A stretch of 32,000 nt of DNA from Candidatus Saccharimonadota bacterium (GCA_963718045.1 OY970350.1:330001-362000), one strand, 5' to 3'; counted from the stretch's first letter, positions 8,754-25,070 are shown. Made by a program: numbers and translations. Notes: generated by a model from the sequence alone, not told the origin.

Positions 8754-10310
8754 TTGAAGCACATCTTCAAACTACTATTAACTGCTATAGTTATAGCTAT
8801 GATTTGGCTAATTGGCCTGCTTCTCGTTATTGTTCTTGTTGAGCTTTTGGCTTGCTATTTGCCGGTTAACCAGTTTCAGAAAATATTAGCTGGATTGTGC
8901 CTTATTATTATTTCAGTTGACAGCCTGCTAATCTTTGGCTTAAGGCCGGCTATTTGGTCAGCTCTAGTAATTTATTTCTCTGTTTTTAGAGTTATTAACT
9001 TAATTAAACTGATTGATGCCCGTAAACAGAAGGACTATTTAAGGTCGTCATTTACAAGGAGTGCTTTAATGTTGGTTTTTATTCAGGCGGTAATTTTACT
9101 GCTTGGCTGGGTTAACAGCTGGCTGGCACTTGATCACCTGGAAGAGACGGGCTTATTGTCGGCAGTAACTGTTATTAGTTTAATAATAATGGCCTTATCT
9201 CTAAGAAGAAGTTTGTTAAAAACAAGGCCTAATCTAACTAGAACTTTCACTTCTGACGCCAAACTGCCAAGTTTAAGCGTTGCTATTCCTGCCAGGAATG
9301 AAACTGTTGACCTGGATGAATGTCTGACCAGCCTGATTGCTTCAGACTACCCTAAGTTAGAGGTTCTAGTGCTTGATGACTGTTCCCAGGAAAAACGGAC
9401 CCCGGAAATTATTAGGAAATACGCCCATGACAGCGTTAGGTTTTTAGCTGGCCGTGCACCGGATGAGTCATGGACACCTAAGAATTATGCTTATGAGCAG
9501 TTAGCCGCTGAAGTTAACGGCGAGATCATCCTATTTGTAGGTGTTGACACCCGTTTTGATTACCAGACTATTCGAAAGATGGTCGAACTCAAAATGTCTA
9601 AAAAGAAGACCATGATCAGCTTTATGCCCGTTAATAGCCTACCTAGAACCAAGTTTAAGAGCATCCTGCTTCAGCCGGTCAGATACCTATGGGAACTGGC
9701 TATTCCAAGGAGATCTTTTAACAGGCCGCCGGTTTTAAGTACTTGCTGGTTAATTGACAAAAAGGTGTTACTAGAAAACGGCAGCTTTAATGCTGTCAGC
9801 CGGAGTATATTGCCAGAAAGGTACTTCGCCCGTCAAGCGGCCCAAAAGAACGATGGCTATAGCTTTGTTTGCCTGGGTGAGAAGCTTGGTTTGCTAGCTA
9901 AAAAGAGCCTCAAAGATCAAAAAGAGACAGCCGTCAGGACCGGCTATCCGCTGTTAAAACAAAGAATTGAAAACGTATCCTTTATAGTTTTAAGCGAGCT
10001 AGTATTATTTATTTTCCCGATTCTTGAACTTATCTACGGTCTTATTAAAGGTAGCATATTTGTAGTTATTGTTAGCCTGATCAATATCTTAATTGCCAGC
10101 GTTGTCTTATTTGTTATTACTAGGCTGACGTATAACAAGGCTATCTTTTTGAGCGCTATATTCTATCCGTTTGTGATTGCCTACGACATCTTCATTATTT
10201 TTTATTCTATGTGGGCCTATGAATTTGGCGAAGTAGTTTGGAAAGGACGAAATGTCAGCGTACCGGTCATGCAGATTGTGACCCGCTTTTCTACTTTAAG
10301 TCCGGAATAG
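8754..10310 (+). CDS. Polytopic membrane glycosyltransferase, family 2
   Basis: 518 aa. N- and C-terminal clusters of hydrophobic helices flank a GT2 core: LSVAIPARNE, EVLVLDDCS, FVGVDTRF and LLQPVRYLW (a QxxRW-like motif). The start is uncertain: TTG at 8754 in the ORF track, with the next ATG at 8799. Confidence 0.75.
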   Translation: MKHIFKLLLTAIVIAMIWLIGLLLVIVLVELLACYLPVNQFQKILAGLCLIIISVDSLLIFGLRPAIWSALVIYFSVFRVINLIKLIDARKQKDYLRSSFTRSALMLVFIQAVILLLGWVNSWLALDHLEETGLLSAVTVISLIIMALSLRRSLLKTRPNLTRTFTSDAKLPSLSVAIPARNETVDLDECLTSLIASDYPKLEVLVLDDCSQEKRTPEIIRKYAHDSVRFLAGRAPDESWTPKNYAYEQLAAEVNGEIILFVGVDTRFDYQTIRKMVELKMSKKKTMISFMPVNSLPRTKFKSILLQPVRYLWELAIPRRSFNRPPVLSTCWLIDKKVLLENGSFNAVSRSILPERYFARQAAQKNDGYSFVCLGEKLGLLAKKSLKDQKETAVRTGYPLLKQRIENVSFIVLSELVLFIFPILELIYGLIKGSIFVVIVSLINILIASVVLFVITRLTYNKAIFLSAIFYPFVIAYDIFIIFYSMWAYEFGEVVWKGRNVSVPVMQIVTRFSTLSPE

Positions 10311-11397
10311 TAACCGTGAAGGCTGAGCCTTTATTAAGCTCACTTTTAAACTCAATTTGAGCGTGAATGAGTTTAGTCAGTTTCATGGTGACGTAAAGTC
10401 CCAGGCCGGTGCCTTTAGTTTGCTTGGTGCGGTAGTCTTCGCTTCTAAAGAACTTATCGAAGATTCTACCCTGGTCGCCCTTGCTGATACCGATGCCGGT
10501 GTCACTGACTTCAAATCTGACGCCTTTTTCAACCTTATTGGCGCTAATTGATATATGTCCTTCATTAGTATATTTAATGGCGTTGGTTATAAAGTTCTGC
10601 AGTATTTCCCTAACGTATAGTTTTGAAGATTTTAGAATCTCCAGATGAGGGTCAAGTTCAACTTTTAATTCAAGACCTTTAGTCTTGCAGTCTGGCCGGT
10701 AGTTATTAGCTAGTTCATTAACTAAATCAACAACGTTAATAGGTTCAATCTCGACTGTTAATTTACCCCTCTCTGCCCGGGAAAGGGTTGCCAGATCATT
10801 GATCATGTCGGCCAGGAATAAAGTTTGGGAATGGGCTTCTTTTAGGGCCTGTTTTACCTGTTTTAGATCACCTGTTTTATCGACTATAAACTCGGCATTG
10901 CCTATATTGCCTTCAGTGATAGCTATTGGCGTCCGGAGTTCATGGCTGACAACGCTAATAAACTCATCCCTTTCTTCTTCCAGGGATTTCTCACGGGTGA
11001 TATCTCTTAGCAGCAGCACAAAGCCTTCTGAGCCTTGCTGGCCGTAGCCTAGTCTAACAGGGGCAATTGAAGTGTAAAGGCTAATAATACTGCCGTCTTT
11101 ATACTTAAGGCGGTAATCGCGGTTTGAGGTTGGCAGTTTAGTCTCTCTAACAACATCATCAATTTCAATCGGCTGGTTATTTTTATCTATCGGGCTAAAT
11201 ATCTTATCTAGCCTTGCACCTGGCGTTATGGTGTTAATGTCTAGCAGGTTTAAGGCCGCGGCGTTATATGTTGCTATCCTAATATGCTCGTCAACCGTTA
11301 TTACGGCATCAGCCATGGAATTAATCAGTGTTTTTAGTCTCTGGTGGTCGAGATCTTCCTGCCTAAGGGATGGTTTTAGCGGTTTTAGTAGCTGCAT
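10291..11397 (-). CDS. Soluble PAS-domain sensor histidine kinase
   Basis: 368 aa with no TM segment. It has a PAS-like N-terminus (LINSMADAVITVDEHIRIATYNAAA), an H-box (SHELRTPIAIT), and the HATPase N/G boxes (NFITNAIKYT, DTGIGIS, GTGLGLY). Confidence 0.9.
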   Translation of the reverse strand: MQLLKPLKPSLRQEDLDHQRLKTLINSMADAVITVDEHIRIATYNAAALNLLDINTITPGARLDKIFSPIDKNNQPIEIDDVVRETKLPTSNRDYRLKYKDGSIISLYTSIAPVRLGYGQQGSEGFVLLLRDITREKSLEEERDEFISVVSHELRTPIAITEGNIGNAEFIVDKTGDLKQVKQALKEAHSQTLFLADMINDLATLSRAERGKLTVEIEPINVVDLVNELANNYRPDCKTKGLELKVELDPHLEILKSSKLYVREILQNFITNAIKYTNEGHISISANKVEKGVRFEVSDTGIGISKGDQGRIFDKFFRSEDYRTKQTKGTGLGLYVTMKLTKLIHAQIEFKSELNKGSAFTVTIPDLK

Positions 11398-11435
11398 ATT
11401 AAGATATTGTAATCAATTACCTTTAAGTCTAAAAG

Positions 11436-12128
11436 CTAAACAATGGTCGGATAGCTTTTAATCTGCTTTTTAAACTCCAAACATCTAGGCAGCCGGGCTT
11501 CAAGGGCCTGCCAGAACTTAGGTCCGTGCTGCATAATTTCAGTATGGTTTAGTTCGTGCATAATGACATAGTCTATTAGCTCCCACGGCAGTTCCATGAG
11601 ATAAAGATTTAAGGTTATGTTTTTAGAGCTGTCACAGCTGCCCCAGCGTGTTTTAAGGCTTTTTATTCTAAGCTCTTTATATTTAAAGCCGTGTCTACCG
11701 GCCAGTTCTTTAACCCTTATAGGCAGTAATCTGTTGGCCTGAGACGAAAGAGCTCTTTTTATTATTCTTCTGGCTGCTTCTTGGACTTTTGGGTTTGTAG
11801 TATCTAATTCTCTCGGGTAATAAACAACTGCCTCCAGCTCGCTAAGACGAGACGTGACGGTCTTTTTATCAGTCGGCTTAAAGATTAAACGGTGGTTTTT
11901 GCCAATTAGTCTGCCGGGGATCAGCAAAGTTCTTTCTGGTATCTTTTTTAGAATCCAATCCTGCTTGCTTTTAGCAAAGCTTATGGCCGCACTATACGGT
12001 ACCCACGTTGGAATAGACATCTTAACCAGACCTTCACCAGAAATACTTAATCTAATCTGGCGAGACGTTGATCTTTTAGAAACTGAAACATTAATCTGAT
12101 CGTCAAGGGCAAATTGTTTTGATTTCAT
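11436..12128 (-). CDS. YgjP-like (DUF45/M48-type) zinc metallopeptidase family protein
   Basis: 230 aa. RWGSCDSSKNITLN and the C-terminal HExxH region YVIMHELNHTEIMQHGPKFW are typical of DUF45. The ATG abuts the stop of the upstream kinase gene (TAAATG). Confidence 0.8.
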   Translation of the reverse strand: MKSKQFALDDQINVSVSKRSTSRQIRLSISGEGLVKMSIPTWVPYSAAISFAKSKQDWILKKIPERTLLIPGRLIGKNHRLIFKPTDKKTVTSRLSELEAVVYYPRELDTTNPKVQEAARRIIKRALSSQANRLLPIRVKELAGRHGFKYKELRIKSLKTRWGSCDSSKNITLNLYLMELPWELIDYVIMHELNHTEIMQHGPKFWQALEARLPRCLEFKKQIKSYPTIV

Positions 12129-12791
12129 TTAATGGATATAAATATTGCGGCGGGCGACGTCTTCCCGGTCGATGCTGCTCGGTGGTACTAAGTTGACCAT
12201 GCCAGGTTTAGCTAAGTTGCTGGCGTAGTCTTGGACCTGCAGTATGCCCTTATCTCGCATTTTGGACATAACAATGTTTCTTTGGGTTGAAAAATGGTGT
12301 TTACCGCTGGCCACAACCGGGTCTTCATGATAATCGGGGTTCTGCATGTAGGACAAAATGCTATCGAAAGTGGTTCTATCCCAACCGGCTGCATGACGGT
12401 CATCGGCCCGTCTTTTGTCTCTTTTAACATTTCTGGCAAAAGCGCTCTCAACATCAACCTGGAACCAAACAAGTATGGGGGTGGCACCGTGTTTCTTGGC
12501 TATTTCGGCTAAGGCTTTTCTCTGGACCATGCGCATGGCGTTAGTATCATAAATTACGCTCATTCCGGCCGTTAGGAATTCTTCTGTCATATAGTCCATT
12601 AGCTGGGCAACGACGTTATTTTCCTGCTGGTCATGACGGGGTTTTTCAAACAGTTCGCTTCTAACCCGGTCACTTTGTAAGTTGGCAGCCTGGACCTCTT
12701 CAGCAAATTGCCGGGCAAAATATGTCTTGCCTGAGCCAGGAGTACCATAAAATATCATCAGGAACGGTTTGTGCGGCGCTATCTTTGACAT
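12129..12791 (-). CDS. P-loop kinase/NTPase (AAA_33 / zeta-toxin-like fold)
   Basis: 220 aa with the Walker A motif FYGTPGSGKTYFARQF. Its size and layout resemble small-molecule or polynucleotide kinase-like ATPases. The substrate is unknown. Confidence 0.65.
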   Translation of the reverse strand: MSKIAPHKPFLMIFYGTPGSGKTYFARQFAEEVQAANLQSDRVRSELFEKPRHDQQENNVVAQLMDYMTEEFLTAGMSVIYDTNAMRMVQRKALAEIAKKHGATPILVWFQVDVESAFARNVKRDKRRADDRHAAGWDRTTFDSILSYMQNPDYHEDPVVASGKHHFSTQRNIVMSKMRDKGILQVQDYASNLAKPGMVNLVPPSSIDREDVARRNIYIH

Positions 12792-12901
12792 TATGATGAA
12801 TATTGTATATCAGATGTTAGGAGTTTTGAAGTAGTTTGTCAGATGTCAGCTATTAGGTTAGTATAAATGACTACAATTACAAGCTAATTCTAGTCTAGGG
12901 G
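12771..12901. repeat. Direct repeat copy A (131 bp), paired with 19444..19574
   Basis: It aligns base-for-base with 19444..19574 at a constant offset of 6673 bp. By eye I counted about 11 mismatches and no indels. It covers the first 21 nt of the kinase CDS plus the intergenic region. Confidence 0.9.
12802..12830 (-). promoter_or_regulatory. Putative promoter of the kinase operon (near-leaderless)
   Basis: The minus strand reads TTCAAA, a 17-nt spacer, then TACAAT. The -10 ends 10 nt before the ATG at 12791, and there is no Shine-Dalgarno. Confidence 0.4.
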
Positions 12902-12965
12902 CTTACCAAGTAGATCATTCCACAGACTTGCTTCCATCTCTAAGTTGCACATCTTGTCTTGAAAC

Positions 12966-12980
12966 TTGGATTCAATCCAA
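12966..12980 (-). terminator. Weak hairpin downstream of the giant gene
   Basis: TTGGAT-TCA-ATCCAA is a palindrome 28 nt past the stop codon. On the minus strand it is followed by GTTTCAAG, a poor U-tract. A second small hairpin (TTAAC-GTAG-GTTAA) lies next to it. Confidence 0.25.
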
Positions 12981-13007
12981 TCGGATTAACGTAGGTTAAC
13001 AGCCATA

Positions 13008-16000
13008 TCATGGTGGTGCATCTAAGGACTGTAAGCTGCCATTGCTAAATGTTGCCCCGCCGCGTAAGCGATAATTAGTGGCTGGGTGATAATACACTGT
13101 AAAATCGGCAATTGAAGTATGGTTGCCACTTTGGTCCGGGTATGTAGCAGTTTGAGAGTCGTCAAGTACGTAGCTAATCCACATATACCGGCCGATATTA
13201 GTGGTATTGCTACAGCCGTCCGTGGTAAAAACCAGCGGTTTTTTTACTCCGAGAAAACTCAGTCCGGTTGGCAAAGTAGTCAAACCGTTAAATTTTGTGC
13301 AGGCATTGCTGGCAAACCTATATTTAATAATGATGCCGCCCGGCCCGCTGATTCCACCAAGTCCCGGGTTAGTAGAGTTTGAATTGCAAACACCAGAGCT
13401 GCAATCACCACCATTTGTCACTATTTCAGTAGGGTTCGGGTCATCATTAGTAATGCCGGTAAAATCTATCAGACGTGAGTAAAAGCCGACTCGGGGTATG
13501 GACAGTAATCCGGCATAGTCAACCACTGCTGTAATAGTGGCTGAACCAATGGTACCGCCTATCTCATAAAGATAGCCATTATAGACTACAGCAGATGATT
13601 GCCAGGTTCCTGAGGCTAAACCATTAGTGATTGTCCAAGGACCAATAGCGCCGCTATTATTGATGGAGGCATAATAAATGTATGGGCTAATAGCACCACC
13701 AGTAAGATATCCGCCTATCTCATAAAGATAGCCGTTATAGGCGACAGAAGTAGCGGCCATAGTGCCAAATTGCAGACTAGTTGTAGCCGTCCAAGAACCG
13801 AAGGAACCATTACTGCCAATAGCAGCATAGTAAACAGCGGCGGAGGGAGCGCTGCCGACTTCTCCGCCTAATACATAAATATTACCGTTATAGGCGATAG
13901 ATGTAGCTTGTTCGGTGGCAGCCGGCAGATTGCCGGTGGCGGTAGAAGTTGAGCCGCACCAGTCACCGGTTATAGTGCCGGCACAGGTCGCGGGAGCAGC
14001 TAGGGAGCCATTACTATTGATAGCAGCATAGTCAACGGCAGCAGTAAAACCACCGCTGGTAGCTGGAGCACCGCCTATCTCATAAAGATAGCCGTTATAG
14101 GCAAGAGAGGTGGCGTAGTTGGTGGTAGACGGAAGATTACCGGTGGCAGTAGATGTCGAGGCACACCAGTCCCCGGTGATGGTGCCAGGGCAAGTTCCGG
14201 TAGCGGACAGCGAACCATTACTATTGATAGCAGCCCATTCAACAACAGCGGTAATAGTAGAGCCACCGCTAACAACCCCGCCTAGCACATAGATATAGCC
14301 ATTGTAGACAGCAGAACTGGCGGTGTAGTTGTTGATGGGCAGACTACCGTTGCTGGTAGAAGTTGAAGCACACCAGTCACCGGTTATAGTACCGGCGCAG
14401 GTCGTGGGGGCAGCCAGGGCACCGCCGGCGGTAATAACGGCATAACTTACAACAGCAGTAGCGGTACCGGTAGTATATCCCCCCATCTCGTAGATATAGC
14501 CATTGTAGGCGACGGAAGTAGTGTAGTTTGTAACAACAGGCAGGCTGCCGGTAGCAGCAGAAGACGAGGCTGTGACTGTCGTTATCGTACCTTGAATGCC
14601 GTTATTTATTGGGGCATAGTAAACATAGGAGGTAACGGTGGAAATAGCCCCGCCCAACTCATAGACATAGCCATTGTAGACTTGAGAGGTGGAGCCCCAG
14701 ATTCCGGTAGCCGGTATACTACCGTTGGCGGTAGAAGTCGAGACGCACCAGTCACCAGAAAGGTAGACAGGACAGCCGCCGGGAGGAGTCAGGGCGCCAG
14801 TGCTGGAGATAACAGAATAGTCAACAGCGGGGGTAGGGTCGCCGGCGCTGGCAGTCTCACCGCCTATCTCATAAATATAGCCATTATAGACAACTGCGGT
14901 GGCATAGAAATCGTAACTTGGCAAGTTGCCAGAGGCAGTAGAAGTTGAGGCGCACCAGTCACCGGTTATAGTACCGGCGCAGGTGCCGGGAGCGGTCAAG
15001 GCGCCATTGCTAGGATTAATAGTAGTATAGTCGACGATGGCGAGGGGAACATTACCGGTAGTTTCGCCACCTATAACATAGATATAGTTGTTATAAATAA
15101 CAGAGTTAGCACTGGACGTAGCAGCCGGCAGGCTGCCATTGGCAGTAGAAGTTGAGGCGCACCAGTCACCGGTTATAGTACCGGCGCAGGTGCCGGGAGC
15201 GGTCAAGGCGCCATTGCTAGGATTAATAGTAGTATAGTCGACGATGGCGAGGGGAACATTACCGGTAGTTTCGCCACCTATAACATAGATATAGTTGTTA
15301 TAAATAACAGAGTTAGCACTGGACGTAGCAGCCGGCAGGCTGCCATTGGCAGTAGAAGTTGAGGCGCACCAGTCACCGGTTATAGTACCGGCGCAGGTGC
15401 CGGGAGCGGTCAAGGCGCCATTGCTAGGATTAATAGTAGTATAGTCGACGATGGCGAGGGGAACATTACCGGTAGTTTCGCCACCTATAACATAGATATA
15501 GTTGTTATAAATAACAGAGTTAGCACTGGACGTAGCAGCCGGCAGGCTGCCATTGGCAGTAGAAGTTGAGGCACACCAGTCACCAGTAGTGCCGCCGGGG
15601 CAGCCACCGGGAGCGATTAGTGTACCGCCAGTGGGGTTAATACCGGCGTATTCAACGATAGGGGTAATACTGCTACTATTGCCGCCTATCACATAGACAT
15701 AGCCGTAATTGCCATTCGACGCATAAACGACAGAGGTGGAGTAGTCCAAAGCCACGGGCAGTGCTCCGGTAGTTCCCCAAGAACCAATAGCACCACTGGC
15801 ACTGATAGCAGCATAGTTAACGGTAGTGACATTAGCAGCGCTGTTATTGCCGCCTATTTCGTAGATATAATTATTATAGACAGCAGAAGAAGCATAGTAG
15901 GTGGCGGTAGGCAGGCCATTAGTGTTAGTTGTCCAGGAGCCAACCGTCCCGGCACCGGCAATTTGGGCATAGATAACACAATTGTTGTAAGAGCCAATTT

Positions 16001-19000
16001 GTTGCTCACCGCCTATCTCGTAGATATAGCCATTGTAGGCGACAGCGGTAGCACTATCGGTGGCAGCCGGCAGGCTGTCGCTGGCTGTCCAATAACCGAT
16101 ACTACCGTCGCTAGATATAGCCGTATAGTAAACTAAAGCGGTAATGCTAGCAGCAGTAGTATAGCCGCCTATCACATAGATATAGCCGTTAGAGATGACG
16201 ATGGAGGCTGAATTCTCAACAGAGTTCCCCAGGCTTCCCGTCAAGGCGCACCAGTCACCGGTAATGGTACCTCCTGGGCAGGTGGCGGGAGCGACCAGGG
16301 CGCCGGTGCTGGAATTGAGGGCGGCATAGTCAACGGCTCCACTACCAAATATCTCATAGACATAGCCATTATAAACGCCAGCAGAAGCATAGTAGGTAGC
16401 TGTCGGCAGATTACCGGTAGCGGTAGAAGTTGAGGCGCACCAGTCACCGGTAATGGTGCCAGCGCAGGTTCCGGGAGCAGCCAGGGCGCCGCTGCCGGTG
16501 ATGGCAGTATAGTCAACGACAGCAGTAGCGCCGCCACTATAGCCGCCTATTTCATAGATATAGCCATTGTAGGCGACGGAGGCAGAGCTACTGGTGGCAA
16601 CCGGTAGACTGCCTGTAGCTGTCCAAGAACTGATTGCGCCGGTGCTGGAATTGATAGCGGCATAGTCGACAGCGCTGCTAGATCCTCCTATTGCATAAAC
16701 ATAGCCATTATAAACTACAGCGGTTAGTACGTCGGTTGCAGTCGGCAGGTTGCCGTTGCTGGTGGAAGTTGAGGCGCACCAGTTACCGGTAATGGTGCCA
16801 TAGCAGAATGTGGGAGCGGCCAAGGCGCCGGTGCTGGGATTGATAGCGGCATAGGAAACGGTGGCCAGGGGGCCGGTGCTATTATCACCGCCTATCTCAT
16901 AGACATAGCTGTTGTAGGCGACGGAGGCGGCTGCTATGTCATTATAAGGCAGTTCGTCAGTCGCATTCCAAGGAGCAATACCTGCGTCAATTAGGGCGCC
17001 GGTGCTGGGATTGATAGCGGCATAGGAAACAACAGCGGTAGGAGTACCGGGGCCTTGGACAGAGCCACCCATCTCATAAACATAGCTGTTATATATAACG
17101 GAAGTGGCAGATCCGAGTCCATTCGTTAGGCTGCCGTAGTACACGCTAGCACCCTGAGAAGAAGCCGAGGTGCACCAGTCACCGGTAATGATGCCATAGC
17201 AGAATGTGGGAGCAGCCAAAGTGCCATTACTGTTGAGAGCTGCATAGTCAACTTCAGTACCAAGACCGCCAGATATTTCATAGACATAGCCGCTGTAGAC
17301 GACGGAAGTACCCCAGATGTCGGTAGTCGGTAGGCTGCCGTTGGTAGTAGAAGTCGAGGCGCACCAGTCACCGGTGATAGTGCCGGCACAGGTTCCGGGA
17401 GCAGACAGAGCGCCCGTACTGGAATTAAAAGCGGTATACTCAACAACAGCACTATTGCCACCACTATAACCGCCCATTACATAGTCATAACCGTTATAGA
17501 AGACAGAGGATGCTTCAGAGACAGCAGCCGATAGGCTGCCATTGGAGGTAGAAGTCGAGGCGCACCAGTCACCGGTAATAGTACCGGCGCATGTGCTAGG
17601 AGCGGCCAAGGCGCCAGTACTGGAACTGAGAGCGGCATAGTCAACAACGCCGGTAGAAGAACCGCTTATTTCATATACATAATTATTATTAATAACGGCG
17701 GCAGAGTAAGCATTGGTAGCCGGCAGGCTGCCATTGGCGGTAGAAGTCGAGGCGCACCAGTCACCGGTGATGGTGCCGGCACAGGCGCTAGGGGCGGCCA
17801 AGGCGCCAGTACTGGAACTAACGGCAGCATAGTTAACAACAGCAGTAGAAGAACCACCTATTACATAGACATAACCACTATAAGCAACAGAGGTAGCGCC
17901 ATAGGTGCTAGCCGGTAGGCTGCCGTTGGTAGTAGAAGTCGAGGCGCACCAGTCACCGGTGATGGTGCCGGCACAGGCGCTAGGGGTGACCAGGGTGCCA
18001 GTGCTGGAATTGATGGCTGCATAATCTACAACAGCGCCATTGTCATAGCCGCCTAGCTCATAGATATATCCATTATACATGGCAGAGGTAGACATGTAGT
18101 TGGCGGTCGGCAGGCTGCCTGTAGCGGCAGAAGATGAGTAACACCAAGCATATGCCAGGGTGCCAGTGCAGGTGGGGCCGGTAAGATTACCGCCAGTTAA
18201 TCCAGCTTCAATAATCTGGTTATTGGTGCTATTAAAGGTAATATCGCCTTCATTATTGCCATTGATCATAAAATTAGAAGCAGATGCCACAATTACACTG
18301 GGGTCGATCGATATCGGACCGAATATATCCCCTAGCCCACTGGCAGTAACAGTCACAATGTCTCCGGTTAGAGTTAATTTTATATGTTGAGTAGAATTAA
18401 CTGACATTTGCCCATCAGTAGTAATAATTTGCGGTGCTGGCAATACGAAAACTAAATTGTCTTTAACCGACTTTTGACGGGCTTCTAGGACTTTCTGCTC
18501 ATCAGTCGGGCTGCCATAACTAATATTGCCGAATAAAGCTGGGCTGGCCGAGTAGATACCAAGGTTCCCGCCAGACATCATCCGGGCCTGAAGTGTGCTG
18601 GGTAATTTCAATTTATACTGTAACTTAACGGTTCCCCTCGGAGCGCTTGCATAAATTATATCTTCTTGAACACCATTAGTTTTAACGGTATAAACAGCTT
18701 TGCTACCATTCAATCCCATTGGGTATACGGTGTGGCCTGAAATTTGCTTGCCAGGTAAAGTCGAAAATAATGGAATCATGGTAAAAGATAAACCACTGGT
18801 ATCATCATAAGTAGTAACGCCCAGATGAGAGTTAATCGGCAACTTCAAACTAAATTTTGCTTTATCTTTAGAACTGCCCCCTACGGTAACGCTATCTCTA
18901 GATGGTAGCGCTGAACCAGAGCTATTGATTGCCGATTTGCTCAAAAAATAAGTTTTGCTTTTGGCGTCATAAGTAAACTGTGACAAAAGACTCTTATCGG

Positions 19001-19340
19001 GCTGACCGATTAGGGCTTGTTCATTCACTGGCAGTTTGTAGCTGGCAGTAATTAAGCTGCGCATATAAAATACCGAGCCGATTGCCAAAACAAACACTGC
19101 CAGTATTACGATGCCAAAACAAGCCCACTTAATCCGGCGTTTCCCAAGACGGTTAATAGTAAGCCTTAACTTGTGTTTGATTATTCTAAATGGCAGTTTA
19201 AGCCTTTTAGTGAACGGGTTAACAATATAAGTAGCAGTCTGAAGAAACGGCTTAAGAATTCTACTAATTAAACCACTTACTGGATTAGATGGAGTCTGAG
19301 CCTTCTTTTTTTTAGCTGTTGTTATTATTTTATCTCTCAT
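13008..19340 (-). CDS. Giant (2110 aa) N-terminally membrane-anchored repeat protein with ~25 Kelch-like beta-propeller blades; putative surface protein
   Basis: A single uninterrupted ORF. It starts with a basic N-tail and one hydrophobic helix (IKWACFGIVILAVFVLAIGSVFYM). Repeated ~60-75-aa units end in YNGY[IVL]Y[EV][IML]GG, and many contain CAGTITGDWCASTST.NGSLP. Confidence 0.9.
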   Translation of the reverse strand: MRDKIITTAKKKKAQTPSNPVSGLISRILKPFLQTATYIVNPFTKRLKLPFRIIKHKLRLTINRLGKRRIKWACFGIVILAVFVLAIGSVFYMRSLITASYKLPVNEQALIGQPDKSLLSQFTYDAKSKTYFLSKSAINSSGSALPSRDSVTVGGSSKDKAKFSLKLPINSHLGVTTYDDTSGLSFTMIPLFSTLPGKQISGHTVYPMGLNGSKAVYTVKTNGVQEDIIYASAPRGTVKLQYKLKLPSTLQARMMSGGNLGIYSASPALFGNISYGSPTDEQKVLEARQKSVKDNLVFVLPAPQIITTDGQMSVNSTQHIKLTLTGDIVTVTASGLGDIFGPISIDPSVIVASASNFMINGNNEGDITFNSTNNQIIEAGLTGGNLTGPTCTGTLAYAWCYSSSAATGSLPTANYMSTSAMYNGYIYELGGYDNGAVVDYAAINSSTGTLVTPSACAGTITGDWCASTSTTNGSLPASTYGATSVAYSGYVYVIGGSSTAVVNYAAVSSSTGALAAPSACAGTITGDWCASTSTANGSLPATNAYSAAVINNNYVYEISGSSTGVVDYAALSSSTGALAAPSTCAGTITGDWCASTSTSNGSLSAAVSEASSVFYNGYDYVMGGYSGGNSAVVEYTAFNSSTGALSAPGTCAGTITGDWCASTSTTNGSLPTTDIWGTSVVYSGYVYEISGGLGTEVDYAALNSNGTLAAPTFCYGIITGDWCTSASSQGASVYYGSLTNGLGSATSVIYNSYVYEMGGSVQGPGTPTAVVSYAAINPSTGALIDAGIAPWNATDELPYNDIAAASVAYNSYVYEIGGDNSTGPLATVSYAAINPSTGALAAPTFCYGTITGNWCASTSTSNGNLPTATDVLTAVVYNGYVYAIGGSSSAVDYAAINSSTGAISSWTATGSLPVATSSSASVAYNGYIYEIGGYSGGATAVVDYTAITGSGALAAPGTCAGTITGDWCASTSTATGNLPTATYYASAGVYNGYVYEIFGSGAVDYAALNSSTGALVAPATCPGGTITGDWCALTGSLGNSVENSASIVISNGYIYVIGGYTTAASITALVYYTAISSDGSIGYWTASDSLPAATDSATAVAYNGYIYEIGGEQQIGSYNNCVIYAQIAGAGTVGSWTTNTNGLPTATYYASSAVYNNYIYEIGGNNSAANVTTVNYAAISASGAIGSWGTTGALPVALDYSTSVVYASNGNYGYVYVIGGNSSSITPIVEYAGINPTGGTLIAPGGCPGGTTGDWCASTSTANGSLPAATSSANSVIYNNYIYVIGGETTGNVPLAIVDYTTINPSNGALTAPGTCAGTITGDWCASTSTANGSLPAATSSANSVIYNNYIYVIGGETTGNVPLAIVDYTTINPSNGALTAPGTCAGTITGDWCASTSTANGSLPAATSSANSVIYNNYIYVIGGETTGNVPLAIVDYTTINPSNGALTAPGTCAGTITGDWCASTSTASGNLPSYDFYATAVVYNGYIYEIGGETASAGDPTPAVDYSVISSTGALTPPGGCPVYLSGDWCVSTSTANGSIPATGIWGSTSQVYNGYVYELGGAISTVTSYVYYAPINNGIQGTITTVTASSSAATGSLPVVTNYTTSVAYNGYIYEMGGYTTGTATAVVSYAVITAGGALAAPTTCAGTITGDWCASTSTSNGSLPINNYTASSAVYNGYIYVLGGVVSGGSTITAVVEWAAINSNGSLSATGTCPGTITGDWCASTSTATGNLPSTTNYATSLAYNGYLYEIGGAPATSGGFTAAVDYAAINSNGSLAAPATCAGTITGDWCGSTSTATGNLPAATEQATSIAYNGNIYVLGGEVGSAPSAAVYYAAIGSNGSFGSWTATTSLQFGTMAATSVAYNGYLYEIGGYLTGGAISPYIYYASINNSGAIGPWTITNGLASGTWQSSAVVYNGYLYEIGGTIGSATITAVVDYAGLLSIPRVGFYSRLIDFTGITNDDPNPTEIVTNGGDCSSGVCNSNSTNPGLGGISGPGGIIIKYRFASNACTKFNGLTTLPTGLSFLGVKKPLVFTTDGCSNTTNIGRYMWISYVLDDSQTATYPDQSGNHTSIADFTVYYHPATNYRLRGGATFSNGSLQSLDAPP
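14941..15561 (-). repeat. Three perfect in-frame 207-bp tandem repeats inside the giant gene
   Basis: Units at 14941, 15148 and 15355 are identical by direct comparison. Each encodes the 69-aa unit GTCAGTITGDWCASTSTANGSLPAATSSANSVIYNNYIYVIGGETTGNVPLAIVDYTTINPSNGALTAP. Confidence 0.95.
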
Positions 19341-19443
19341 TTTCCTATCTATTTTACATTAATAAGCGCTAGTGTTCGACATAACAATAGTACCCACATC
19401 AGTCGTGCCGCTGGTTGGCGCCGTAATTACGCTTATTCCGGCA

Positions 19444-19574
19444 GTGCGGCACCATCTTTGACACTATGATGAATATTGTATACCAGATGTTAGGAGTTTT
19501 GAAGTAGTTTGTCAGATGTCAGGCATTGGGTTAGTATAAATGACTAGAATTACAAGTTAATTCTAACCTAGGGG
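19444..19574. repeat. Direct repeat copy B (131 bp), paired with 12771..12901
   Basis: See copy A. This copy ends 5 nt into tRNA-Trp. It begins with a relic of the kinase 5' end in which the ATG has become GTG. Confidence 0.9.
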
Positions 19575-19643
19575 TGTCCGTTAATGGTAAGCGGCGACTC
19601 TCCAAAAGTCGTGCTGTCGGTTCAAGTCCGGCCACCCCTGCCA
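19570..19643 (+). tRNA. trnW: tRNA-Trp (anticodon CCA), with the 3' CCA encoded
   Basis: Hand-folded cloverleaf: acceptor AGGGGTG/CACCCCT, D stem CGTT/AGCG, anticodon stem CGACT/AGTCG with loop CTCCAAA, and T arm GTCGG-TTCAAGT-CCGGC. Confidence 0.9.
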
Positions 19644-19756
19644 AAATATGACAATAAGTATTAATTAACTACTTTTGACGAATATTTGTTGATTTTTGCT
19701 GTGTGGTATACTTTTTACAGATTATATAAGCTTTAACGTAATTTGAGGGAGTTATT

Positions 19757-20248
19757 ATGCCGAAAAAAATAAATAGAACTTTAATTATAACTATCTGTTT
19801 AATTATTGTAGTTATAGTGGTACTAGCTGTTGTTTTAATAGTTAGGAACAACAATAAGAATTCAAATACACTTAGTGCTAGCCAGCAGACTGCAGCCAAG
19901 CAGTTAATTGACACCAATTGGCAGCAATTCTTTGCCGCTTCAACTTCACTACAGGGGCGGGAAAACCTTCTACAAAAAGGCGGCAGCTACAGCCAATACG
20001 TCCAGGCTGAGTTTTTCGGACTAGCTGCTCAAAAATCCAGAGCTGTTATTAATAGCGTCATTTTTGTGAATAAGACTAAAGCCAATGTTGTTTACACTGT
20101 TTATCTTAATAGCCGACCTCTTTTAAGCGACGAAAAGGGCCAGGCACTATTTATAGATAATTCATGGAAAGTCAGCGATGGTACGCTTTGTCACCTATTA
20201 AACTTTGGCGCTAATACACCGGCTGTCTGCAAGAACTTACCATATTGA
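19757..20248 (+). CDS. Hypothetical membrane-anchored or secreted small protein
   Basis: 163 aa. A GAGGGAG Shine-Dalgarno lies 6 nt upstream of the ATG. An N-terminal hydrophobic helix (LIITICLIIVVIVVLAVVLIV) is followed by a ~120-aa soluble domain. A TGGTATACT extended -10 lies at 19704..19712. Confidence 0.6.
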   Translation: MPKKINRTLIITICLIIVVIVVLAVVLIVRNNNKNSNTLSASQQTAAKQLIDTNWQQFFAASTSLQGRENLLQKGGSYSQYVQAEFFGLAAQKSRAVINSVIFVNKTKANVVYTVYLNSRPLLSDEKGQALFIDNSWKVSDGTLCHLLNFGANTPAVCKNLPY

Positions 20249-20286
20249 CGATATATTAGTAATCTAAAGAGCAAGAAGACTAAATA

Positions 20287-22650
20287 TTATCTGCCAAGTT
20301 TCTCTTCTGTTTTTTTAATGTCTATGGTTGTTTTCACTACCGTATCGGGTGCAAGCGAGATACTGTCTATTCCCTCTTCAACCAAGAAGCGGGCAAATTC
20401 AGGGTAATCTGACGGCGCTTGGCCGCAAATTCCAATATGCACCTTCTTTTGTTTGCTGACTTTTATGACTCTCCTAATGAGTTCCTTCACGGCCTCGTTG
20501 TTTTCATCATATACATGAGCGACAGTCTGGTTGTCCCTGTCAACACCGAGTGTTAACTGGGTTAAATCGTTTGACCCGATCGAGAATCCGTCAAACAGAT
20601 CAGCAAATTGTTCGGCCAGGATAACATTTGACGGAATTTCACACATCACATAAACTTCAAATCCATTTTCACCTCGTTTAAGTCCGCATTTTTCCATAAT
20701 TGCTATAACTTTATGGGCCTCATCTAAATTGCGGCAGAAAGGGATCATAGCTTTTATGTTAGTAATGCCGATTTCGTTGCGGGCTTTTTTAAGGGCCTGG
20801 CATTCAAGTTCAAATGCCCCGCGATATGCTTCACTGTAGTAGCGGCTTGCGCCCCGCCAGCCAAGCATCGGGTTATCTTCAATCGGCTCAAACTGCTTGC
20901 CGCCAATAAGATTGGCATATTCATTTGTTTTAAAATCGCTGAATCTAATTATGACGTCATTGGGGTAAAAAGCGGCGCCAATTATGCCGACACCTTCGGC
21001 TAATTTGTCGACAAAATATTGTGATTTATTGGTATATCCGCGGGTCAGGTCATTAATTAGCACCCGTGTTTTTTTATCTGTAATTTTGTCAAAATGCAGC
21101 AGTGCTAGGGGGTGAATCTTAATGTGAGAATCAATAATGAATTCTTCCCTGGCTAGGCCGACGCCGTCATTTGGAATCAATGAATACTCAAAGGCAAGGT
21201 CCGGGGAACCTATATTCATCATTATTTTCGTTTTTGGCCGCTGGAGGTTTTTTATATCAGTCTTATCAACCTTAAATTTCAAAATGCCTTCGTATACCAG
21301 TCCTTCATCGCCGCCGGCGCAACTTACTGTAATAGAGCTGCCGTTGGCTATTTTCTGGGTGGCATTTCCTGTACCGACAACACAGGGTATTCCAAGCTCC
21401 CTCGAGACGATTGCGGCGTGGCACGTTCGTCCGCCTTTATCGGTAACGATGGCGCTTGACTGTTTCATTATGGGCACCCAATCTGGATCGGTCATCTCTG
21501 TTACGAGAACATCCCCATCTTTAAATAAGCCAATGTCTTTAACGTCCATAATTTTACAAACTTTGCCGGATCCAATCTTATCGCCAACACTAGTTCCTTT
21601 AGCGATGACCGTACCGCTTTCAAGCAGTTTGTATTCCTCGACAACGTTCAGATCTTTGCGTGATTCAACTGTCTCGGCTCTGGCCTGAACTATATAAAGT
21701 TTTTTGTCTTTGTCATCCAGGGCCCATTCTATATCCATTGGCTTGCCGTAGTGTTTTTCAACTTCCATGCCCCATTTGGCCATAGTTATAGCCTGCCCGT
21801 CAGAAATGGAATATTTAGCCTGATCAGATTTAGAAACAGAGATATTTTTAGTCCGGTTGCCAAAAGCAGTTATCATCCTAAGTTTTTTATTGCCGAGTTT
21901 TCTTTTAATGATAGTCATTGTTGGTTTGAAGACCGTAAACTCATCAGGATTTACCCGGCCTTGGACAATGTTTTCACCTAACCCATAAATTGAACTAACG
22001 ACAACTGCGTTTTTAAAGCCTGATTCGGTGTCAATAGTAAACATAACCCCTGCCGCCTTAGCGTTGACAGCTACCATTTGCTGAATGCCAACCGAAAGAG
22101 CAACCTTCATATGATCAAAGTGATTTTCTACACGGTAAACAATGGCCCGGTCTGTAAACAAAGATGCAATACATTTCCTGACTGCTGATAGTACGGCTTT
22201 CTCACCTTTTATATTTAGAAATGATTCTTGCTGTCCGGCAAAAGAAGCATTCGGTAAATCCTCAGCTGTTGCCGACGAACGTATAGCAACTACTAAATTA
22301 CGGCCACCACATATTTTGCTTAACTCCCGGTAGCCCTCAATTATTTCTTCTTCAAAATCTTTTGGCAGTTTTGAGTGAATTATTAGGGAGCGGATTTTTA
22401 CGCCGGCTTTTTCAAGCTCCTTAATGTTGGTTACGTCAAGGCCTTTAAAATTTTCAATTATTGCGTTTCTAATACCGGCATGTTCAATAAAGTAGTAATA
22501 ACTTTTGGAAGTGGTGGCAAATCCATTCGGCAAATTAATACCTTTAGGGGCTAATTTTTGGTACATTTCTCCCAGTGAAGCATTTTTCCCTCCGACCTCG
22601 GGAACGTCAGATAGAGAAATATCTTTGAAAAATTTTATATATTTGTACAT
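20287..22650 (-). CDS. ppsA: Phosphoenolpyruvate synthase (pyruvate, water dikinase)
   Basis: 787 aa. The N-terminal VPEVGGKNASLGEM, the phosphohistidine motif GGRTCHAAIVSRELGIPCVVG, and the C-terminal PEP-utilising domain (SIGSNDLTQL) all match PpsA. Confidence 0.93.
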   Translation of the reverse strand: MYKYIKFFKDISLSDVPEVGGKNASLGEMYQKLAPKGINLPNGFATTSKSYYYFIEHAGIRNAIIENFKGLDVTNIKELEKAGVKIRSLIIHSKLPKDFEEEIIEGYRELSKICGGRNLVVAIRSSATAEDLPNASFAGQQESFLNIKGEKAVLSAVRKCIASLFTDRAIVYRVENHFDHMKVALSVGIQQMVAVNAKAAGVMFTIDTESGFKNAVVVSSIYGLGENIVQGRVNPDEFTVFKPTMTIIKRKLGNKKLRMITAFGNRTKNISVSKSDQAKYSISDGQAITMAKWGMEVEKHYGKPMDIEWALDDKDKKLYIVQARAETVESRKDLNVVEEYKLLESGTVIAKGTSVGDKIGSGKVCKIMDVKDIGLFKDGDVLVTEMTDPDWVPIMKQSSAIVTDKGGRTCHAAIVSRELGIPCVVGTGNATQKIANGSSITVSCAGGDEGLVYEGILKFKVDKTDIKNLQRPKTKIMMNIGSPDLAFEYSLIPNDGVGLAREEFIIDSHIKIHPLALLHFDKITDKKTRVLINDLTRGYTNKSQYFVDKLAEGVGIIGAAFYPNDVIIRFSDFKTNEYANLIGGKQFEPIEDNPMLGWRGASRYYSEAYRGAFELECQALKKARNEIGITNIKAMIPFCRNLDEAHKVIAIMEKCGLKRGENGFEVYVMCEIPSNVILAEQFADLFDGFSIGSNDLTQLTLGVDRDNQTVAHVYDENNEAVKELIRRVIKVSKQKKVHIGICGQAPSDYPEFARFLVEEGIDSISLAPDTVVKTTIDIKKTEEKLGR

Positions 22651-22799: not shown

Positions 22800-23453
22800 A
22801 TGGAAGAAGAAATAAAAACCATTTCTAAGTGGCTTGGTGCTGGTTCTATTGATATTTTCGGCTGTCCCTTTTCGGGGAAAGACACCCAGGGAGAAGTTTT
22901 AGCCAAGTTATTTGGCGGTGAAATGATATCCGGCGGAGATATACTGCGGAGCCATAAAGAACCAGCCAAAATTGATCAGGTTCTAGGCAGCGGCGGTCTT
23001 GTCCCGTCCGATTTTTACCTGGACTTAGTTTTACCCTACTTATCGCAAAGAAAGTACAGCGGCAAACCGTTAATATTAAGCGCGGTTGGCCGGTCTCATG
23101 GTGAAGAGCCGCAAGTTATTAAAGCGGCCGCTGATTCAGGGCATCCCATTAAGGCAGTAATACTCCTTGATTTAACTGAACAAGAGGTCTGGCGGCGGTT
23201 TGAAGAGTCTAAAGTTGAAGGCGACAGAGGCAAGCGGGCCGATGATAAGCGGGCCATAATTGAAAACAGGCTAAAGAAATATAATACAAGAACGGTGCCG
23301 GTTATCGATTACTACCGCAGTGCTGGTTTACTAATTGAAGTCAATGGAACATTGCCGCGCGAAGAAGTGACTGATGAAATCCTAAAAGGATTGGTTAATA
23401 AATCAAAAAACTTAGGCATTAGTCGGGGTGACGTCAATCTTGCTAACCGTTGA
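22800..23453 (+). CDS. adk: Adenylate kinase family (nucleoside monophosphate kinase), divergent
   Basis: FGCPFSGKDTQGEVLAKLFGGEMISGGDILR, GGLVPSD and RADDKRAIIENRLKKYNTRTVPVIDYY align with Adk motifs. It has the short-LID form. The ATG at 22800 is preferred over the ORF-track TTG at 22791. Confidence 0.72.
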   Translation: MEEEIKTISKWLGAGSIDIFGCPFSGKDTQGEVLAKLFGGEMISGGDILRSHKEPAKIDQVLGSGGLVPSDFYLDLVLPYLSQRKYSGKPLILSAVGRSHGEEPQVIKAAADSGHPIKAVILLDLTEQEVWRRFEESKVEGDRGKRADDKRAIIENRLKKYNTRTVPVIDYYRSAGLLIEVNGTLPREEVTDEILKGLVNKSKNLGISRGDVNLANR

Positions 23454-25070
23454 TCCGGCCGATAATCCATCAGTGTTTATTTCGTAGGTAATTATCTGTT
23501 CAAAAGGCATTTCAAAACTGGCGATATCTTCGTCACTAATAGATTCTAGGTATTTCGTAAGGGCCCTTAAACTGTTCCCGCTGGCGACAATTAGAATATT
23601 GTTGCCATTTTGAAGCTCAGGCAGTATGGTCTGTTTATAGAACGGTAAAACGCGGTCATAGACATTTTTGAGCGTTTCACCTCTCGGGATAGGTTCATCC
23701 CACCCCCGCCTTATATTATTAAATGCATCTTCGCCGAGGGAGTTTTTTATATCCCATTTGTTCTTTCCGGTGTATTCGCCGTAGTCTCTTTCGTCCATTG
23801 CGGCCGATGTTTTAACTTCCACTCCAAGTATTTGGGCAGTATCAAGCATTGCCTCTAGTGTTTCACGGGTTCTGATTTGCTCCGAACAGTAAGCCTTATC
23901 TATATGAATATCGAGTTTTTTTAGAGCTTGGCCCAAAGCCCTAGAGTCATTAAATCCTTTATCGCTTAGGTGCACATCGGTTCGTCCCGTCCATTTACCT
24001 TGTGCATTCCATTCCGATTCGGCATGTCTGGCAATTATCAGCCTACCGGCTGGCTTCTTGTCAATTTTAACCTTGTTTGGCGTACTGCCGGACCAATAGT
24101 CAATAATATTTTTGGCGGTTATCTGGTTAATCCTTAGAATTGCCTCTTCCGTGTTAAAGGCATTGTGCGGGCTGACAATTACATTAGGCATTTTTTCTAG
24201 GACGGATATCTCAACACCATGATGAAGCAAGTCCTCGGGGATAGTATCGCTTCTTAAAAGCGCTGTTTCCTCATGGTAATTGAGCAGTACTTCACCTTCT
24301 ATGACATCAATACAAGCACCTCCCAATTGACCGTTGCAAAGCAGTTCGGTTAATGCTTCGGTGTCTACCAGTTCTCCCCTGGCAGTATTTATTAATATAG
24401 CGCCAGGTTTCATTTTGTTAAGTTTTTCCTGGTTCATAATATGGTGGGTGGACGGTAAATAAGGTAAGTGCAGCGAAACAATATCTGATTGAGCAAGCAG
24501 ATCGTCTAATTCAACATACTTAAAATTAAGCTTGTCTTGAAGTTCGGGTTTTTGAAAACTATCAAAGGCAACTGTATTCATCGAGAAACCACCGGCAATT
24601 TTAAGTGCTTTCTGACCAATATGCCCAGTGCCAACTACCCCGAAGGTTAATCCCTCAAGGTCATGACCCATTAATTCCTTAGATGAGAACTCAGTATTCC
24701 CGGCTTTAAGTACGGCTGGCAGCTTGCGTTTCAGGGCCAGCAGCAATGCGAAAGCATATTCGGCAACTGTATTTTCGCCGTATGTTGGGACGTAGACAAC
24801 TGTTATACCGTGTTCCTCCGCCGCAACCAGATCAATATTATTAAATCCGGTTGACCGGCAGGCGATTAATTTAAGTTTGGGCAGTGCTTCAATAACTTGT
24901 CGGTTAATTACACTCGTTATAAATACCGAGATTACCTCAGTATCCGGATTGCAGTTTGACAGTTCGCATTTATCTGCTACAAATTCCCAATGATGGTCGG
25001 TACTAGAAAGAGCAGCGCTCAGCTGTTCTTTATCTAGATCAGTGGCATCGTAGAAATATATCAAAGCCAT
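23412..25070 (-). CDS. Fusion protein: D-isomer-specific 2-hydroxyacid dehydrogenase (LdhA/SerA-like, N-terminal ~330 aa) plus 2,3-BPG-dependent phosphoglycerate mutase/histidine phosphatase (C-terminal ~215 aa)
   Basis: 552 aa. GVVGTGHIGQ (NAD-binding), NTARGELVD and SPHNAFNT mark the dehydrogenase. LIIARHAESEWNAQGKWTGRTDVHLSDKG marks the dPGM (RHGESEWN-type motif). Confidence 0.82.
   Translation of the reverse strand: MALIYFYDATDLDKEQLSAALSSTDHHWEFVADKCELSNCNPDTEVISVFITSVINRQVIEALPKLKLIACRSTGFNNIDLVAAEEHGITVVYVPTYGENTVAEYAFALLLALKRKLPAVLKAGNTEFSSKELMGHDLEGLTFGVVGTGHIGQKALKIAGGFSMNTVAFDSFQKPELQDKLNFKYVELDDLLAQSDIVSLHLPYLPSTHHIMNQEKLNKMKPGAILINTARGELVDTEALTELLCNGQLGGACIDVIEGEVLLNYHEETALLRSDTIPEDLLHHGVEISVLEKMPNVIVSPHNAFNTEEAILRINQITAKNIIDYWSGSTPNKVKIDKKPAGRLIIARHAESEWNAQGKWTGRTDVHLSDKGFNDSRALGQALKKLDIHIDKAYCSEQIRTRETLEAMLDTAQILGVEVKTSAAMDERDYGEYTGKNKWDIKNSLGEDAFNNIRRGWDEPIPRGETLKNVYDRVLPFYKQTILPELQNGNNILIVASGNSLRALTKYLESISDEDIASFEMPFEQIITYEINTDGLSAGSTVSKIDVTPTNA

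Follow-up and report, generated by a model that had tools for sequence, protein, structure and literature searches.

We analysed a stretch of 32,000 nucleotides from a Candidatus Saccharimonadota bacterium (GCA_963718045.1 OY970350.1:330001-362000), referred to throughout as the window, in which an initial annotation made from the sequence alone had pointed to a giant membrane-anchored protein built from Kelch-like repeats. The gene is a single open reading frame (ORF) of 2110 codons with an ATG start, located at 13008..19340 on the minus strand; both coordinates and length are exactly those first reported. In order, it encodes a basic tail, one transmembrane helix, an N-terminal domain (N-domain) of ~280 amino acids (aa), 25 Kelch blades and a C-terminal domain (C-domain) of ~166 aa. 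All parts of the protein are given below with their window coordinates on the minus strand. NCBI and ENA hold an identical 2110-aa protein (P0249), encoded on a contig of 764 kb, and the sequence strings quoted in the initial annotation were located at aa 203-230, 1977-1993 and 2040-2057.

The basic tail (aa 1-68; 19137..19340) contains 11 Lys and 7 Arg, carries a net charge of +17 and is predicted to be cytoplasmic from the positive-inside rule. It precedes the anchor helix WACFGIVILAVFVLAIGSVFYM (aa 72-93; 19062..19127), which is the sole hydrophobic segment of the whole protein, in agreement with the tail and single anchor proposed at the outset. The features of LPXTG sortase anchoring were not found, as the protein ends in ...SLQSLDAPP with no C-terminal hydrophobic segment, its only transmembrane-like segment being aa 72-93. 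We infer an N-in/C-out topology with one anchor helix, which would place the remainder of the protein at the cell surface; this rests on the single N-terminal anchor, the paired cysteines and the architecture and variation set out below.

Both a regular expression and a blade hidden Markov model (HMM) built from the protein found 25 repeat units, the number counted previously. All 25 end in Y-x-h-[GSF]G (Y[EVA][IMLV][GSF]G), and the strand preceding the units is V-x-Y in 23/24 and V-E-W in the other. As had also been counted, 17 units (60-70 aa each) contain a Cys loop, 16 of them as C-x8-C and one as C-x9-C (C1021/C1031). The remaining units are plain and shorter (47-59 aa); their number, eight, stands, but only seven have the Trp that had been ascribed to them all, since unit 20 is the one unit of the 25 without Trp.

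These units are Kelch beta-propeller blades (Pfam clan CL0186). Three Pfam Kelch models score above their curated cut-offs, namely PF24681 (Kelch_KLHDC2_KLHL20_DRC7; 100.6 bits, cut-off 50), PF01344 (Kelch_1; 65.9 bits, cut-off 20.1) and PF13964 (40.4 bits, cut-off 25.3), and the only PDB sequences matched by phmmer were KLHL3 and SAKe6, a designed six-bladed Kelch protein. An AlphaFold2 (AF2) model of aa 1165-2110 has a mean predicted local distance difference test score (pLDDT) of 79.7, rising to ~85-94 in blades 20-25 and in the greater part of the C-domain, and DSSP assigns a quartet of strands to each unit. The best 50 PDB matches of this model in Foldseek were all six-bladed Kelch domains (SAKe6, KLHL12, KEAP1, NS1-BP and LZTR1), with target-normalised TM-scores of ~0.8 and a root-mean-square deviation of 2.5-3.9 Å. 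Profile search and structure prediction thus bear out the Kelch assignment of the initial annotation, the C-terminal half of the protein folding in the model like six-bladed Kelch domains.

The blades are likely to be arranged as four propellers in a 6/6/7/6 layout, in which the third propeller has no counterpart in the plan usual for the family; the three to four tandem propellers estimated initially are in keeping with this. Blades 20-25 form propeller 4 (aa 1565-1944; 13509..14648), which is modelled as six-bladed (AF2, Foldseek). A VDYAGL strand that follows blade 25, ahead of the C-domain, is taken to be its closing strand. Since the AF2 model of aa 95-1235 is poor for blades 2-6, propellers 1-3 were grouped by marker blades that recur with a period of six. 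Among relatives with 17-19 blades, an 'IDPAG'-type marker blade is found at position 7 in 20/29 cases and an 'INNGG'-type marker blade at position 13 in 64 cases and at position 14 in 15 more. The corresponding blades of the window protein are blade 7 ('IDAG') and blade 20 ('INNG'), the latter six blades from the end and therefore first in propeller 4. Moreover, the orthologue from a sister species (P0003) has 24 collinear blades, to which the window protein adds a single extra copy of a 69-aa blade. From these positions propeller 1 would comprise blades 1-6, all with the Cys loop (aa 373-759; 17064..18224), propeller 2 would comprise blades 7-12, beginning with the 'IDAG' marker (aa 760-1111; 16008..17063), and the extra propeller 3 would comprise blades 13-19 (aa 1112-1564; 14649..16007), with seven units because blade 16 is the same as blade 17.

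The blades are flanked by two further domains. The N-domain (aa 95-372; 18225..19058) is the best-conserved part of the protein and is specific to the family, being found by phmmer in 114/120 homologues and always directly after the transmembrane helix. It is modelled confidently (pLDDT 80-94) as mostly beta with one 13-residue helix, and has invariant acidic residues at E226 and D227, within an NG-x-x-ED motif, and at D280 and D346. The conserved, beta-rich C-domain (aa 1945-2110; 13011..13508) contains four Cys, is modelled with about nine strands and ends ...RLRGGATFSNGSLQSLDAPP; an HMM found it in 91/120 homologues, nearly always at the extreme C-terminus. For neither domain was any family found above chance in Pfam (each domain alone, E<=10), in NCBIfam or in member-wise Pfam scans of the alignments, and their profiles gave chance-level matches only against all PDB sequences. 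No matches were obtained by tblastn of the N-domain against plasmids or of the C-domain against phages, word-indexed homologue searches with both profiles returned only fragments of the same family, and hhalign found the two domains to be unrelated to each other. As far as our literature searches show, they are two undescribed orphan domains. The statement in the initial annotation that the C-terminal domain resembles nothing recognised therefore holds for Pfam, NCBIfam and PDB, whereas the link that it drew from the N-terminal region to Rhs and wall-associated proteins found no support. Pfam gave no RHS, DUF6531 or TcdB match (whole protein at E<=1, N-region at E<=10), NCBIfam, PDB profiles and plasmid tblastn were likewise empty, RHS/YD repeats are absent and, in the best 150 of its 665 relatives, the N-domain always lies at the N-terminus of family-sized proteins. 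An Rhs/YD-repeat or WapA-like wall-associated module is therefore not supported.

The end of the C-domain carries a family-wide motif, Y-RLRGG-x-TF...LQ-x-LD-[AT]-PP (aa 2090-2110; 13011-13075), which contains the ubiquitin-like string 'RLRGG'; the resemblance to ubiquitin is probably coincidental. Distant members of the family end in LDTCGP, the Cys of which pairs with a conserved internal Cys.

The best-conserved part of the blade is the Cys hairpin, C[AP]GTITGDWCASTST. Between ten canonical copies, the hairpin codons show 202 synonymous as against 9 non-synonymous differences in 675 comparisons, and the amino-acid sequence of the hairpin is therefore held by purifying selection and not merely by recent duplication. 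In the AF2 model the segment forms a small beta-hairpin (TIT-GD-WCA), which we interpret as a disulfide-stapled structural element, inserted as 15 residues in the C-D loop of 17 blades; the disulfide is plausible. Non-synonymous differences between blades instead reach 70-93% at their peaks in the B-C loop (after GG) and the D-A loop (after 'LP'), compared with 0-37% in the hairpin. In KEAP1-type Kelch domains, it is these two loops that make up the top face, where ligands bind. Relatives carry Cys pairs elsewhere in the blade, either directly after GG, after the Tyr strand or in place of the Ala and Trp positions, and the pairing pattern of the C-domain cysteines switches between subclades. 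Stapling of blade loops by disulfides thus seems to recur in the family, with the C-x8-C form as the version of one lineage, and the blade pairs, the displaced staples and the switching in the C-domain would all fit an extracellular location. The regular Cys loop noted initially is therefore real, but it is better described as a lineage-specific staple than as a family feature, and within the blade it is the part that is conserved and not the part that varies.

The composition of the blades is equally distinctive. Over the 1572 aa of the blade region (aa 373-1944; 13509-18224) there are zero Lys, Arg and His, while 41 Asp and 30 Glu give a net charge of -71. Lys plus Arg account for a median of 2.6% of the blade region across the family and for 0-0.2% in the close subclade. 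Protease resistance, easier translocation and not sticking to anionic walls are guesses at the reason. As far as literature searches show, both the regular disulfide-stapled Kelch hairpin and the total lack of basic residues are undescribed, and together they are of interest for protein design and for the evolution of beta-propellers. The GC content of the blades (0.50-0.55) exceeds that of the flanks (0.41-0.44). We rejected this as a sign of foreign origin, because the parts of the gene encoding the N- and C-domains are near the GC of the flanks and the blades consist to 53% of Gly, Ala, Ser and Thr.

A protein family of Saccharibacteria

A whole-protein search returned 124 relatives, named only 'hypothetical protein' or 'N-acetylneuraminic acid mutarotase', the latter a JGI label. 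The informative taxa among these were Candidatus Saccharibacteria, Saccharimonadales and Patescibacteria, together with two weak Kelch-level matches named Planctomycetes and Polyangia. An exhaustive search with the N-domain profile against 1.84 billion cluster representatives recovered 665 clusters at E<=1e-3, 468 of them at E<=1e-30. In the best 150 of these 665 relatives, whose domain content was judged by position and protein length and not by a scan, the domain lies at ~aa 30-440 of proteins mostly 1400-1600 aa long. When one genome per GTDB species was scanned with a 6-sequence N-domain alignment, 38 loci were found (a single N-domain sequence gave none); most come from entries titled as Saccharibacteria or Saccharimonadales metagenome-assembled genomes and a few from entries titled only 'bacterium', and no phylum other than Saccharibacteria was named among the 38. 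The premise of the initial annotation that the host is a member of the Candidate Phyla Radiation (CPR) is in accord with this, the named relatives being Candidatus Saccharibacteria or Saccharimonadales.

We analysed 135 full-length relatives that have both the N- and the C-domain. The family plan consists of an N-terminal transmembrane helix, an N-domain of ~280 aa, 18 or more Kelch blades and a C-domain of ~150-166 aa, and the window protein has all four. The estimated number of blades has its mode at 18-19 and ranges from 14 to 29; with 25 blades against the mode of 18-19, the window protein is an expanded member. Each small genome has one to three copies, sometimes as two loci in one genome or as tandem paralogues. 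A minority of relatives extend past the C-domain by 200-530 aa. One type of extension is a Laminin_G_3 (concanavalin-A-like lectin) domain, scoring 87 bits; the others are beta-rich and have no family assignment, and none of the extensions matched a toxin domain, most matching no family at all.

These searches suggest a large, unannotated family that is seen only in Saccharibacteria. It comprises at least 665 clusters at 50% identity and appears specific to that group, each member taking up ~0.5-0.8% of a ~0.8-Mb genome. No description of its architecture was found in the literature on Kelch proteins of Saccharibacteria or Patescibacteria or on CPR surface propellers.

Variation between assemblies

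Conspecific assemblies encode versions of the protein with 2110 aa (25 blades), 2041 aa (24), 1977 aa (23) and 1910 aa (22), all differences being in frame and of whole blades. Two repeat arrays, both detected by TRF and well outside chance expectation, are the sites of these changes. The first, a 207-bp tandem array at 14920..15584 (3.2 copies, 98% identical by TRF), is where blades are gained or lost between assemblies; its copies at 15127-15333 and 15334-15540 are 100% identical. The second, an array with a 192-bp period at 17324..18035, spans blades 2-5 and is the site of further whole-blade deletions in conspecific assemblies. Six does not divide the count of 25; the additional blade is the perfect 207-bp duplicate.

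Over the 26 kb shared with one assembly (L001), the gene differs by two blade indels, one in each array, and by one single-nucleotide polymorphism. A third assembly (L043) shows a different pattern. It has 0 mismatches in 19250-22340 and 1 in 9991-12749, compared with 44 across 18500-19249, where the transmembrane helix and the beginning of the N-domain lie, 23 across 17500-17749, within blades 2-4, and 112 across 12750-13749, a tract that takes in the C-domain and the 3′ flank and in which divergence is up to 18%. These tracts, with 6-18% nucleotide divergence, are sharply bounded and lie inside and just downstream of the gene. Synonymous divergence (pS) from L043 is 0.36 in the C-domain as against 0.03 in the blades, and pN/pS (non-synonymous over synonymous divergence) in the divergent tracts is ~0.18. 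Given the sharp bounds, the contrast in pS and the low pN/pS, the pattern has the signature of recombinational import of divergent alleles, centred on the C-domain, and not of local positive selection. The gene is thus the variable locus between otherwise identical genomes of the species.

Saccharibacteria are naturally competent (PMC10633639), and we presume that exchange takes place by homologous recombination after natural transformation. Silent cassettes, a diversity-generating retroelement (DGR) or an invertase were not seen in the window.

Proposed function and alternatives

We favour, at somewhat better than even odds, a protein that binds a ligand at the surface of an environmental Saccharibacterium and that most likely serves adhesion or recognition of the host. 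With the basic tail in the cytoplasm, one helix would anchor the chain in the membrane, the conserved N-domain would lie next to the envelope, and four Kelch propellers would form a beaded stalk with the C-domain at the distal end. A glycan or protein of the host envelope is the most plausible ligand, and it may be bound via the variable B-C and D-A loops of the top face, via the C-terminal tip or via both, with the C-x8-C hairpin in the C-D loop serving as a disulfide-stapled structural element. Specificity could be re-tuned by gain and loss of whole blades and by recombination that swaps the C-domain, the segment of transmembrane helix plus early N-domain, and individual blades among strains. 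As a candidate role, the adhesion or host recognition suggested by the initial annotation is strengthened by the architecture, the lectin add-on in relatives, the recombination restricted to the locus and the variation in blade number.

Several observations weigh against this proposal. The strong conservation of the hairpin and of both flanking domains would be compatible also with a structural role in the envelope. No family member was seen in our searches among cultivated, host-associated Saccharibacteria, oral ones included, and the precedents cited below are therefore analogies only. The pN/pS of the divergent tracts is no direct sign of positive selection, so that the mosaic pattern shows recombination and not adaptation. 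Moreover, blade counts come from metagenome assemblies and may contain repeat errors.

Known systems offer partial parallels. With the six-bladed Kelch domains of KEAP1 and the KLHL proteins and with SAKe6 the window protein shares the repeat signature (hydrophobic strand followed by GG, VDY strand, Trp strand); the modelled propeller superposes on KLHL12, KEAP1, NS1-BP and SAKe6 with the TM-score given above, and the variable residues of the blades fall in the loops that make up the binding face of KEAP1. However, the window protein is predicted to be extracellular and membrane-anchored, is without BTB/BACK domains, strings four tandem propellers on one chain with a 15-residue stapled hairpin in 17 blades, lacks the conserved Kelch Arg in its blades and has two orphan flanking domains. 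The periplasmic Kelch mutarotase NanM/YjhT (COG3055) is likewise a bacterial, exported Kelch propeller, and its name is the one given automatically to relatives, but it is a single propeller of ~350 aa, and the blades here offer neither Arg nor His with which to build a site for catalysis or binding. Closer in setting is PilX2, a propeller-bearing minor pilin of Nanosynbacter lyticus TM7x, which is needed for host binding, is lectin-like, and whose binding is inhibited by added sugars (PMC11623550). This is a Saccharibacteria surface propeller implicated in host binding, and yet the analogy is functional only: PilX2 carries just one RCC1-type propeller, of seven blades, is displayed on a type IV pilus and has no sequence relation to the window protein, which has its own transmembrane helix. 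In Southlakia epibionticum, glycan-binding surface proteins with VCBS, dockerin and FN3 domains are essential (PMC10633639); they too are large envelope-associated Saccharibacteria proteins proposed to target host glycans, and they show that proteins of this sort can be indispensable to an epibiont, although their domain content is different. Finally, phage tail-fibre tips and the neisserial pilin and opa loci resemble this locus in that variation is limited to one surface gene, with sharp tracts peaking at the distal domain and in-frame change of repeat number. They differ in that the window has no visible silent cassettes, DGR or invertase and in that pN/pS is low.

A further step, which we put forward tentatively and consider possible but doubtful, is that the gene is a fast-evolving determinant of host range or of evasion of phages or defences, in which competent cells of environmental Saccharibacteria shuffle the C-domain, the transmembrane-plus-early-N-domain segment and single blades by recombination, gain or lose whole blades, and so re-tune to new host surfaces a multivalent, disulfide-stapled Kelch stalk that lacks Lys, Arg and His. 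If true, this would be a diversification strategy of a cellular epibiont analogous to the mosaicism of phage tail fibres, built on two orphan domain folds.

Rather than binding a host, the protein might simply coat the cell. As a structural envelope protein, S-layer-like or fibrillar, it would shield the tiny cell with acidic, stapled propellers that are protease-resistant and non-sticky, and its variation would serve to evade phages or host defences. The absence of basic residues and the strongly negative charge over 1572 aa, the invariant hairpin, the strong conservation of the N- and C-domains across the 665 clusters and the low copy number per small genome all suit such a coat, and mosaic variation is likewise typical of phage-receptor or antigen genes. 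Yet searches of Pfam and NCBIfam found no SLH, S-layer family or other lattice or anchoring domain in the protein (S-layer proteins are often unrecognisable by sequence), the membrane anchor is a single helix, variability is concentrated in the very loops that Kelch domains use for binding, and some relatives add a lectin domain. We regard a coat as unlikely, while giving it some weight. An extracellular enzyme seems improbable. Here a Kelch-type active site (NanM-like, or like that of galactose or glyoxal oxidase), or an N- or C-domain acting on polymers of the host wall with the propellers as carriers, would be brought forward by the JGI label on several relatives, by a weak match to the NANM model of Pfam and by the invariant acidic residues of the N-domain. 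However, the NANM match (PF24996) reaches 34.6 bits, under the cut-off of 45, and no enzyme family matches the N- or the C-domain. The NanM site binds a carboxylate by Arg, and galactose and glyoxal oxidases are seven-bladed Kelch propellers with His and Tyr as copper ligands and a Tyr-Cys cofactor. Because the blades (aa 373-1944) are without His, Arg and Lys, a His-ligated copper and an Arg-bound carboxylate are both excluded. We therefore rejected identity with NanM, the label being a repeat-driven misannotation, and also a galactose or glyoxal oxidase, no galactose-oxidase structure being among the best 50 fold matches. It is the N-domain, with no known family, that still leaves some room for an enzyme.

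The two remaining explanations call for less discussion. That the ORF is an artefact of assembly, chimeric or with mis-collapsed repeats, could be argued from the two identical 207-bp copies, from the disagreement of assemblies over blade number (22 to 25) and from a count that does not divide by six, but the identical protein was deposited independently, every variant keeps the reading frame and differs from the others in whole blades only, the orthologue of the sister species is collinear over its 24 blades and the architecture is common to hundreds of relatives. Doubt is thus limited to the exact copy number, and we hold an artefact to be very improbable. We would be just as surprised by a polymorphic toxin or contact-dependent delivery protein, in which the C-domain would be a pre-toxin domain ahead of variable toxic tips. 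Such proteins come to mind on account of the large repeat region, the conserved C-terminal motif (RLRGG...LDAPP), the variable 200-530-aa extensions of some relatives and the recombinogenic C-terminus. However, the extensions are Laminin_G_3 lectin or other beta-rich modules without a toxin domain match, the window protein ends at the C-domain, no small immunity-like gene is conserved downstream, and RHS, PT-VENN or similar motifs are absent.

Kelch propellers and giant repeat adhesins are already known; as far as the literature searched shows, what is new here is the architecture, the two orphan domains, the stapled hairpin, the missing basic residues and the mosaicism restricted to one locus. 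To our knowledge, the molecules implicated in host attachment, a few oral strains apart, are limited to type IV pili and a small number of glycan-binding proteins. For a central problem, namely the way in which uncultivated Patescibacteria locate their host cells and stay attached to them, this family supplies testable targets in the C-domain, propeller 4 and the Cys hairpin.

Flanking repeats and neighbouring genes

The gene is bracketed by direct repeats of 131 nt that are 92% identical. The upstream copy (19444..19574) contains a promoter-like sequence, TTCAAA-17-TACAAT, together with a remnant of the beginning of the AAA_33 gene that lies downstream, and abuts a tRNA-Trp (CCA) gene on the plus strand (19570..19643). 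The downstream copy (12771..12901) supplies the AAA_33 kinase-like gene itself with its promoter and its initial 21 nt. As the repeats bracket the gene and the upstream copy touches tRNA-Trp, this arrangement suggests that a 6.7-kb cassette was inserted beside the tRNA gene, which would border the insertion, and that it is driven by a duplicated promoter.

The sister-species orthologue P0003 lies in a different place (L040 1-7733, JGI 3300035696), where it directly follows the genes for a paralogous Kelch protein of 1788 aa and an LVIVD-repeat protein of 3888 aa, in what is a cluster of giant surface proteins; a gene for a LAGLIDADG endonuclease is found 2 kb downstream in the same contig. The gene of another relative sits among housekeeping genes. 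Positions are non-syntenic, tandem paralogues occur, and no conserved operon partners were found among these differing neighbourhoods. The adjacent genes (AAA_33 kinase-like, YgjP, HisK and Mtb12_C-like) are therefore not proposed to be linked to it in function.

Kelch folds were also met in a search of BFVD, where the matches to Kelch propellers included 'virion structural proteins' of jumbo phages (PhiPA3, Noxifer, Phabio and PS119XW) and proteins of uncultured Caudovirales; Kelch propellers are thus also used in phage particles.

Elsewhere in the window, 16 mismatches to L001 fall within 440 bp (28889-29330), compared with 3 in the rest of the 26-kb comparison. They lie in the ORF 28473-29684, which is GH57/polysaccharide-deacetylase-like in L001, and mark a second, small recombination tract. 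A PemK-family toxin gene (26710-27039; 109 aa) has an adjacent 88-aa ORF upstream (L001 2302-2900), the two probably forming a toxin-antitoxin pair. On the minus strand, 23412-25070 encodes a protein of 552 aa in which a D-2-hydroxyacid dehydrogenase (2-Hacid_dh) is fused to a histidine-phosphatase domain (His_Phos_1, phosphoglycerate-mutase-like), adjoining genes for enolase and a PEP-utilising enzyme. Lastly, ribosomal protein L1 (6223-7197, minus strand) is called as 324 aa, the same length as in L001, with the L1 domain occupying only aa 127-314; it has either an N-terminal extension of ~125 aa or an over-extended start.

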